Origin: Victivallales bacterium
GTDB lineage: Bacteria; Verrucomicrobiota; Lentisphaeria; Victivallales; UBA1829
DNA length: 64,000 bases
Assembly (NCBI GenBank): GCA_045589595.1
Contig: JAZNPK010000032.1
Span: forward strand, 53,475 to 117,474
Direction: 5' to 3'
Shown here in pieces: positions 58,816 through 59,310 of the stretch (the first letter of the stretch is position 1; each line of letters opens with the position of its first letter). Under the pieces are notes generated by a model. It did no database searches, was not told where the DNA came from, and saw only the letters and a list, made by a program, of their open reading frames with translations. Both the position numbers and the translations under genes were made by a program.

Positions 58816-58871
58816 TAACGGAACACAGCGGAGCTGTGATGACGGTGGAAAAAAAGTAAAAAATTTTGGTT

Positions 58872-59092
58872 GTCCCATCGTGCCATTAAGTAAGCGATAG
58901 CGTTACGCAATGGCACGATATGGCACACACTGTGTGTTTCGCGCTTTCGCGCGACCAGCGGACTGCCGCTGGACCGCAGCAAGGGCAAAGCCCTTGACGC
59001 GAGCAGAAAACTTGCACTTCGTGCGGCGTTTTCTGCCGTAAGTTTTTGCAACGCGTTGCAAAAACGGTAGAAATAAGAAAAAACTCAAAACA
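58872..59092 (+). repeat. Multi-hairpin intergenic element, tandem copy 1 (copy B)
   Basis: Modules:
- GTGCCATT..AATGGCAC (58880-58916)
- CGCGC-tttc-GCGCG (58940-58953)
- CCAGCGG-actg-CCGCTGG (58955-58972)
- AAGGGC-aaa-GCCCTT (58981-58995)
- GCAGAAAAC..GTTTTCTGC (59003-59036)
- GTTTTTGCAAC-gc-GTTGCAAAAAC (59042-59065)
- A-rich linker

A partial unit (CACAGC-gga-GCTGTG + ATGACGGTGGAAAAAAA, 58824-58865) precedes it. Confidence 0.85.
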
Positions 59093-59310
59093 GTCCCATC
59101 GTGCCATTAAGTAAGCGATAGCGTTACACAATGGCACGATATGGCGCACACTGTGTGTTTCGCGCTTTCGCGCGACCAGCGGACTGCCGCTGGACCGCAG
59201 CAAGGGCAAAGCCCTTGACGCGAGCAGAAAACTTGCACTTCGTGCGGCGTTTTCTGCCATAGTCAAAACTGCTGCGCAGCTTTGACGGTGGGAAAAAAAT
59301 AAAAAAACTT
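59093..59310 (+). repeat. Multi-hairpin intergenic element, tandem copy 2 (copy C)
   Basis: Offset of 221 nt from copy B. Positions 59093-59257 differ from 58872-59036 at only 2 positions. The last hairpin is replaced by GTCAAAACTGC-tgc-GCAGCTTTGAC (59262-59286). Confidence 0.85.

Follow-up and report, generated by a model that had tools for sequence, protein, structure and literature searches.

Between a tonB-like gene and a convergently oriented gene for an NAD-dependent epimerase, contig JAZNPK010000032.1 of a Victivallales bacterium (assembly GCA_045589595.1) carries a spacer filled with hairpin repeats. From our analysis of the 64,000-nt stretch that contains it (positions 53,475 to 117,474 of the forward strand, hereafter the window) and of related metagenomic contigs, we consider it probable that these repeats represent a non-coding, lineage-specific family of mosaic palindromic repeats from uncultured Lentisphaeria, which grows and shuffles by recombination and resembles the repetitive extragenic palindromes (REPs) and bacterial interspersed mosaic elements (BIMEs) or the Neisseria intergenic mosaic elements (NIMEs). 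The family is dispersed, and it is restricted to one uncultured Lentisphaeria lineage. Its two modules, A and B, follow each other in a fixed order within intergenic DNA, most often where convergent genes end, and compensatory Watson-Crick changes preserve every stem.

The spacer lies between the stop codons of the tonB-like gene (57865-58815, plus strand, Pfam TonB_2, stop at 58813-58815) and the epimerase gene (59578-60501, minus strand, Pfam Epimerase, E 7e-59, stop as the complement of 59578-59580), and its 762 nt (58816-59577) are repeat throughout, much as the original prediction, made from the sequence, had claimed for a gap of about 760 bp. That prediction described tandem units with a period of 221 nt, and a repeat search indeed returned 58872-59040 and 59093-59261 as a direct repeat of 169 nt with 98% identity; in their first 165 nt, the two units, which we call unit B and unit C, differ at just the two positions that it had counted (58906, G/A, and 58926, A/G). 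After the shared stretch, they diverge completely for about 50 nt. The last hairpin is GTTTTTGCAACGCGTTGCAAAAAC in unit B (59042-59065) and GTCAAAACTGCTGCGCAGCTTTGAC in unit C (59262-59286), and the A-rich linker that follows it is GGTAGAAATAAGAAAAAACTCAAAACA in the former and GGTGGGAAAAAAATAAAAAAACT in the latter, with the common flanks TTCTGCC(G/A)TA and GGT(A/G)G on either side of the variable hairpin. The partial copy expected upstream was recovered as well, at 58822-58863 (42 nt, a 76% match to 59265-59306).

The tandem period stands, but the 221-nt unit is a composite, because the 72- and 56-nt repeats found next to it belong to the same family as its first third. Module A consists of two hairpins, M1 and M2, measures 56-72 nt and has nine copies in the window, and module B consists of five hairpins, M3 to M7, together with the A-rich linker and has five copies at four intergenic loci; all 14 module copies are intergenic. 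The long hairpin M1 has an outer stem of which at least three covarying versions occur, M1a, M1b and M1c (for instance, ATCGTGCCATT/AATGGCACGAT in M1a, and GTTCT/AGAAC or GTCCT/AGGAC in M1c), and a conserved tip that is a mini-hairpin with a bulged G, AA-GC-(GNNA or GAA)-GC-G-TT. M2 is the hairpin CACAC-NNN-GTGTG, the stem of M3 is TCGCGC/GCGCGA and variants of it, that of M5 is CAAGGGC/GCCCTTG, and M6 (GCAGAAAAC.../...GTTTTCTGC) contains an inner hairpin. In M7 (GTCA-N16-17-TGAC), the ends are conserved and the centre varies, and GG and an A-tract come next. The five terminal hairpins all differ, as had been claimed, but four of the five belong to one GTCA...TGAC series, and those of unit C and of a copy near 53.3 kb differ from each other at three positions only.

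Read along the plus strand, the spacer opens, 9 nt past the tonB-like stop, with a truncated M7-type hairpin (58824-58845, CACAGC-GGA-GCTGTG and then ATGACGG), whose 3′ arm, GCTGTGATGACGG, also occurs unchanged in a copy near 20.6 kb. A-rich linker 0 (58846-58871), which fits the linker consensus GG.GAAATAAGAAAAAACTTTGACAG, leads into unit B (58872-59092), composed of M1a (58877-58919), M2 (58924-58936), M3 (58939-58954), M4 (58955-58972), M5 (58980-58996), M6 (59003-59036), the terminal hairpin M7.1 (59042-59065) and A-rich linker 1 (59066-59092). Unit C (59093-59309) repeats this series as M1a (59098-59140), M2 (about 59145-59157), M3 (59160-59175), M4 (59176-59193), M5 (59201-59217), M6 (59224-59257), M7.2 (59262-59286) and A-rich linker 2 (59287-59309). 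Four tandem M1c-M2 copies then occupy 59310-59577, with start-to-start distances of 72, 72 and 56 nt, and end 3 nt before the epimerase stop; the repeat search gave them as a four-copy 72/56-nt repeat at 59310-59581, and Tandem Repeats Finder agrees.

Further copies had been placed at about 9.3, 20.6 and 53.3 kb, and BLAST and nhmmer found copies there and nowhere else in the window; repetition on this scale is far beyond chance. They are not, however, full elements, since they hold only M3 or M4 to M7 plus a separate M1 or M1-M2. The first array (9297-9535, plus strand), between a V-ATPase c subunit gene on the plus strand and an HDOD gene on the minus strand, consists of an M2-like hairpin (9297-9314), M4-M7 with the linker (9314-9454, plus strand by nhmmer) and an M1c-M2 that is inverted relative to this B module (9535-9471, minus strand). 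The second (20561-20783, plus strand), between two minus-strand genes, contains the 3′ half of M2 with M3-M7 and the linker (20565-20701) and then M1a-M2 (20722-20783). The third (53250-53445, minus strand), between Maf and Exo_endo_phos genes that are both on the minus strand, contains M3-M7 with the linker (53445-53321) and an M1 without M2 (53302-53250), and it lies directly against the ribosome-binding site of the next gene downstream. In every array, the modules run head to tail, with the M1c-M2 at 9471-9535 as the sole inversion. Arrays mostly start at M3 or M4 and finish at M2, and the natural phase is therefore probably M3...M7-linker-M1-M2, not M1...M7. In this M3-first phase, the array between the tonB-like and epimerase genes reads truncated M7-linker-M1a-M2, then M3-M6-M7.1-linker-M1a-M2, then M3-M6-M7.2-linker-M1c-M2 and, finally, three further M1c-M2.

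The hairpins are supported by a comparison of copies. In an alignment of 24 distinct copies of the module B core with a hand-written structure of 35 pairs (M4, M5, outer M6 and M7), 98.0% of the cells pair, versus 33-48% when the partners are slid by 1-3 columns; both sides have changed in 13 pairs, versus 0-3 when slid, and the covariation score is 0.216, versus 0.02-0.05. Furthermore, RNAalifold independently predicts 31 of these 35 pairs. Module A behaves in the same way (35 distinct copies, 16 pairs), with 97.0% of cells paired versus 22-53% when slid and a covariation score of 0.282 versus at most 0.11. Given that pairing and two-sided changes are far above the slid controls, the stems are real, and the supported covariation whose absence had been named as a point against the element is strong. 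We do not count the T-A/C-G covariation at columns 91/134 as repeated evolution, as it reflects linkage between two haplotypes instead. A C·A exception in unit C is no sign of a recent event in the window because it is common to a more divergent strain (contig L034, described below).

The kind of compensation is informative too. Changes are almost wholly from one Watson-Crick pair to another, and there is no G·U excess on either strand: the cells that are not Watson-Crick amount to three G·T, seven A·C and seven A·A in module B and to 14 G·T and eight A·C in module A. Tolerance of G·U pairs is typical of RNA helices. The array folds equally well on both strands (z of -9.9 for the plus strand and -12.0 for the minus strand). 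No reading frame is conserved across the copies, with distances between invariant anchors of 0, 1 and 2 modulo 3 in 4, 11 and 9 of the 24 copies, respectively, and no homologous frame is open in all of them, which disposes of a coding repeat. Searches of the window with Rfam models, including Acido-Lenti-1, gave no match at the gathering threshold, and at E<=10 over 58750-59650 the best were mir-4520 with 16.7 bits (threshold 90) and LOOT with 15.7 (46.4), Acido-Lenti-1 being unlisted. A promoter scan found no sigma-70-like promoter in the spacer, and we rejected a candidate in the linker (the CTTTGACAG motif), which has a poor -10 region.

Comparison of strains shows that the arrays change fast. 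All comparison sequences are short-read metagenome assemblies, and we refer to individual contigs by labels of the form L024. The samples that yielded this species belong to the ENA assembly series ERZ273162xx-ERZ273174xx and ERZ28593xxx-ERZ28594xxx. An identical epimerase protein occurs on at least 23 contigs from many samples, with flanks 99.4-99.6% identical to the window, and the spacer nevertheless measures 762 nt in the window, with two B units, versus 540 nt in L007-L009 (three samples, two assemblers) and 484 nt in L013 and L015; in L010-L012, L014 and L016, it is incomplete, with other mosaics and contigs that stop inside the array. A more divergent strain, L034, with an epimerase protein 92% identical, has a spacer of 333 nt and a single B unit, and its order is the simplest form seen: tonB, truncated M7, linker, M1a-M2, M3-M6, M7.2, linker, M1c-M2, epimerase. 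Relative to L034, the window has an extra 221-nt block (M7.1-linker-M1a-M2-M3...M6) and three more M1c-M2 copies. The combination M7.1-linker-M1a is also found at other loci (L024 and L026), and a linker joining an M7.2-type hairpin to M1c is also found in L024. Thus, of the swapped hairpin that the original prediction described, the difference between hairpins stands, but a directed swap seems not to be its cause: it is best read as a junction of pre-existing unit subtypes, in which a homogenised M1-M6 stretch may have been joined to two different M7-linker variants that already existed. We infer that the two 221-nt copies are a recent product of local duplication or recombination. In fact, units of one array are more alike than units elsewhere, with the same M7 three times in L028 and shared private variants in L025, and this likeness therefore points to local duplication or conversion.

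The 9.3-kb array is stable in length, yet 8.9% of its columns are variable, versus 1.04% over its 19-kb neighbourhood and 0.4-2.6% in other spacers. Its nucleotide diversity is about eight times that of the surrounding DNA, and the changes are concentrated in loops or take the form of whole-hairpin variants. Raised diversity of the NIME kind in the 3′ end of tonB was also looked for and not seen, as the end beside the array is not hypervariable. The tonB-like gene has a repeat of its own at 58120-58271, made of eight perfect tandem 15-nt units (CGAACCTCCGAAGCC, 99% matches) that lie in the proline-rich linker of the protein, and the protein measures 296, 316 and 336 aa in L007, L008 and L015 as the number of these units varies. 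The one mismatch hotspot there, at 57900-58299, arises because the copy number of this 15-nt repeat varies.

The wider census began from an open reading frame (ORF). We searched a protein collection with the translation of a spurious 214-aa ORF across the window array, which returned seven 'proteins' without Pfam domains (P0001-P0007). The five whose contigs were fetched (P0003 and P0004 not among them) are spurious ORFs over other arrays, L024-L028, and four more bystander loci lie in the flanks of those contigs, so that arrays are present at eight or more loci besides those of the window. These deposited 'proteins' of 129-256 aa (L024 10001-10606, L025 4272-5042, L026 56-637, L027 256-720 and L028 449-838) are annotation artefacts. 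Loci occur about once per 16 kb, both in the unselected window and in the fetched-contig flanks, and extrapolation to the genome would give perhaps a couple of hundred of them. The nearest named epimerase homologues, at 89% identity, come from metagenome-assembled genomes (MAGs) labelled 'Lentisphaeria bacterium', and in relatives with an 88-89% identical epimerase (L029, from GCA_045639325.1, and L030-L032) there is no module match in about 50 kb and just 27-28 nt after the epimerase gene. A search of the GTDB representative genomes with an M5-M6 pattern, in a set that does not include the source genome, gave six matches, five of them due to chance, including one in a Pontiellaceae coding region. 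The sixth, L003 (CAYLYZ010000073.1, an 'uncultured bacterium' MAG), is a solitary degenerate relative, M1-M5-M6 at 3990-4075, in a 178-nt spacer between two plus-strand ORFs. Its M1-like hairpin shares the tip AAGCGAAGCGT, then GGGCAAAGCCCTTGA..AGCAGAAA, and the tip motif is therefore somewhat older than the species of the window. An M1-M2 pattern found one match in the JGI metagenomes, a set without this organism, inside a coding sequence and judged to be due to chance. The IMG/VR viral contigs contained no copies, with no match to the first pattern and 98 chance matches to a looser one, none of them confirmed by nhmmer.

As for their surroundings, nine loci have both neighbours known, and these are convergent in six cases, co-directional in two and divergent in one; the excess of convergent pairs has a binomial estimate of P ~0.01 if 25% are assumed to be convergent. 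The arrays have no consistent orientation to transcription: the 20.6-kb copy is antisense to both flanking genes, and the 53.3-kb copy is sense. In L024, L025 and L028, a flanking gene has its own canonical terminator between the gene and the array, and these arrays therefore sit in the terminator-to-terminator gap of convergent genes. These terminators (L024 9866-9935, L025 4138-4215 and L028 ~975-1010) are hairpins followed by a T-run, for example, CCCATGTCCGG...CCGGATATGGGCTTTTTTTATTG. Within the window array, linker 2 and the first M1c together form, where they meet, a predicted canonical intrinsic terminator for the epimerase gene: on the sense strand of that gene (minus strand, 59293-59350), a hairpin at 59350-59308 with a 9-bp GC-rich outer stem (CUUCCUCCC/GGGAGGAAG, -24.9 kcal/mol) is directly followed by U7AU7 at 59307-59293. 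In L034, the matching hairpin is about 25 nt past the epimerase stop, and the U-tract is about 70 nt past it. A canonical terminator is missing after the tonB-like gene, whose transcript would extend into the stacked hairpins.

Four other accounts of these observations need to be weighed. Strong conservation of stems is what one would expect of a structured RNA, in which transcripts of the ~220-nt units, or of the entire array, would act as a multi-hairpin RNA with a regulatory or protein-sponge role, with M7 giving each copy its specificity. Such an RNA would account for the very strong conservation of pairing with compensatory changes, for the fold z-scores near -10 and for conserved unpaired or loop features such as the GNNA/GAA tip of M1 with its bulged G, which is also present in another organism (L003). 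However, neither strand folds better than the other, G·U pairs are almost absent, the mismatches are biased to neither strand, and the orientation to flanking genes is inconsistent. In addition, the spacer lacks a sigma-70-like promoter, close strains carry from one to at least two units at one locus, several arrays lie beyond the terminator of a flanking gene, and no Rfam family matches. Thus, the structured RNA family that the original prediction offered as one of two possibilities is not favoured, and we consider it unlikely. We are similarly doubtful of a non-autonomous transposable element, either a miniature inverted-repeat transposable element (MITE) or a REPIN proper, inserted via its hairpins by a RAYT or IS200-type HUH enzyme or through terminal inverted repeats. 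A family found at many intergenic loci in one module order, and lacking in relatives with 88-89% protein identity, would fit such an element, and the CGTC at the reverse-strand foot of M7 in 18 of 24 copies, together with a GTAG after a few, recalls tagged REPs (PMC3733652). REPs are defined by a GTAG or CGTC tetranucleotide that is unpaired at one end and are associated with RAYTs (PMC3733652), and the REPIN/RAYT system has been described elsewhere (PMC3116915). Here, by contrast, the GTC of 'CGTC' is base-paired, GTAG is found in only about five of 24 copies, and modules run head to tail and do not form inverted doublets. Moreover, neither terminal inverted repeats nor target-site duplications are found at the unit boundaries, array ends fall at different modules, copies in the same array are more alike, which points to local duplication, and no transposase was seen among the Pfam-annotated neighbours. 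For a MITE in particular, the sole inverted repeats that the repeat search gave are the hairpins themselves, and by inspection no flank is duplicated at the array ends.

An artefact of assembly, with the tandem 221-nt duplication as a mis-join or collapsed graph cycle, seems to us very improbable. Many contigs of the same species (L010-L012, L014 and L016) do stop inside the array, and the exact two-unit arrangement occurs in no other contig. A collapsed identical repeat, however, would not carry two internal single-nucleotide polymorphisms (SNPs) and a different M7 and linker, and comparable multi-unit arrays are found at other loci and in other samples. Furthermore, five of the six tested junction 35-50-mers are also present in independent assemblies from other samples, and the window has private variants, namely the exact M7.1-linker1-M1a junction and the 72-nt GTTGTAGCC form of M1c-M2. 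These private variants and the distinguishing SNPs argue that the tandem pair, judged from its sequence, can be regarded as a genuine haplotype. A more speculative account, which we hold to be improbable, sees in the arrays the traces of a recombination or mobilisation system that is yet to be characterised and would be the first of a NIME-like kind outside Neisseria, with an enzyme that would recognise M7 and maybe the tip of M1. This enzyme, either a site-specific recombinase or an HUH endonuclease, would move ~220-nt cassettes from locus to locus by insertion or exchange, with M7 (GTCA-N16-17-TGAC, then GG and the A-tract) as the recognition site and possibly also the invariant bulged-G GNNA tip of M1. 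Such an exchange of cassettes would explain different M7-linker segments on units that are otherwise 98% identical. Other known systems are readily set aside: the units abut and everything between repeats is itself repeat, which excludes a CRISPR array, and the arrays lack the cassettes, GTTRRRY core, adenine-specific variation and nearby reverse transcriptase that integron attC sites, diversity-generating retroelements or retrons would lead one to expect.

We therefore return to a mosaic palindromic repeat family as the probable explanation. The likeness to BIMEs and REPINs noted in the original prediction holds in that the repeats are dispersed, intergenic, modular, variable between strains at 99.5% identity, located mostly at convergent gene ends and without an Rfam match, but not in the strict sense of a REPIN, and the statement that the element is no described family agrees with that lack of an Rfam match and with the literature searched, which pairs no Lentisphaer* with extragenic palindromes. 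Unequal or ectopic homologous recombination and slippage between shared modules would lengthen, shorten and rearrange the arrays, and hairpin potential may be kept either because a hairpin in single-stranded DNA or RNA spreads or acts, or because palindromes correct themselves between their arms. The physiological effect is most likely the punctuation of transcripts. Stacked hairpins at 3′ ends would also block 3′-exonucleases, as REPs do, and the repeats could be tolerated or mildly useful there as terminators and exonuclease barriers. Several observations pull in the other direction. No Y1/RAYT, IS200 or IS110-type gene was found among the Pfam-annotated neighbours in about 190 kb of genome, the defining tags of classical REPs are either missing or ambiguous, and the modules run head to tail and do not alternate as in BIMEs. 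Strong covariation would also be expected of a functional RNA. Only one terminator junction is convincing, as the U-run of the other linkers is 5-13 nt from the stem. Finally, the comparison assemblies are of a kind that can mis-join repeats, and none of them shares the exact arrangement of the window.

If the probable reading is right, a well-resolved intergenic mosaic repeat family is added for the PVC (Planctomycetes-Verrucomicrobia-Chlamydiae) group, with an unusually rich architecture in which at least eight hairpin modules keep to a fixed order. Its arrays are directly seen to be the fastest-changing DNA between near-identical strains in metagenomes; they break short-read assemblies of the lineage and yield spurious ORF calls, and they could serve as strain-typing markers. 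The array-spanning ORFs also offer a handle for finding DNA repeats via a protein index. Should an enzyme that recognises the M1 tip or M7 be found, the family would become a tractable model for the spread of hairpin repeats outside Proteobacteria.

Two further features of the window lie outside the arrays. Inside an ORF at 27314-29494, the region 28850-29330 is dense in tandem repeats rich in CAG, CAA and AAA, with periods of 15, 30 and 45 nt, which would encode a low-complexity stretch rich in Gln and Lys. An apparent 1.2-kb gap between genes is not real: a 476-aa ORF (39129-40559, plus strand), whose N-terminus looks aspartate-kinase-like, spans it, and the gap appears because the longest-ORF gene map contains long antisense ORFs.

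Modular intergenic repeats with a fixed order of sub-elements, a variable internal copy number and a stable predicted structure are known from BOX in Streptococcus pneumoniae and RIME in rhizobia, and BOX has three module types (A, B and C). The present family shares with them the fixed order, the variable copy number and the stable predicted fold, but differs in sequence, in the number of modules (at least eight types here versus the three of BOX) and in the phylum of the host.

Closer parallels are found in the REPs and BIMEs of Enterobacteriaceae and Pseudomonas, which are likewise short (20-40 nt) extragenic palindromes present in many copies and clustered in mosaic arrays, located mainly after genes, variable in copy number between strains and preserved by compensatory changes in their stems, with some copies acting as terminators or 3′-end hairpins. 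REPs tend to lie after genes, in the gaps between ORFs that converge or run in the same direction (PMC3733652). Unlike REPs, however, the family has no conserved unpaired GTAG or CGTC, the M7 pairs 138-162, 139-161 and 140-160 being 100% paired, and whereas BIMEs alternate one or two types of REP, here seven different hairpins follow one another head to tail in a fixed order. Other differences are the 221-nt higher-order period, the lack of a RAYT among the annotated neighbours mentioned above and the Lentisphaeria host, a class without such a family in the literature searched.

NIMEs consist of dRS3 inverted repeats (ATTCCC-N8-GGGAAT) flanking RS units and are reported not to have been observed outside Neisseria (PMC1797815). 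There is no sequence similarity to them, and by inspection the dRS3 motif is absent from the arrays, so that M7 is analogous in position only; its centre is a palindrome too, each intervening unit is a string of hairpins in its own right, and no link to surface-antigen variation was seen. Nevertheless, the two systems are alike in their long intergenic arrays, whose longer units are separated by a short inverted repeat that keeps its ends and varies in its centre (M7 here and dRS3 there), both alternate GC-rich and AT-rich segments, and in both the arrays vary between strains and are thought to be reshuffled by recombination.

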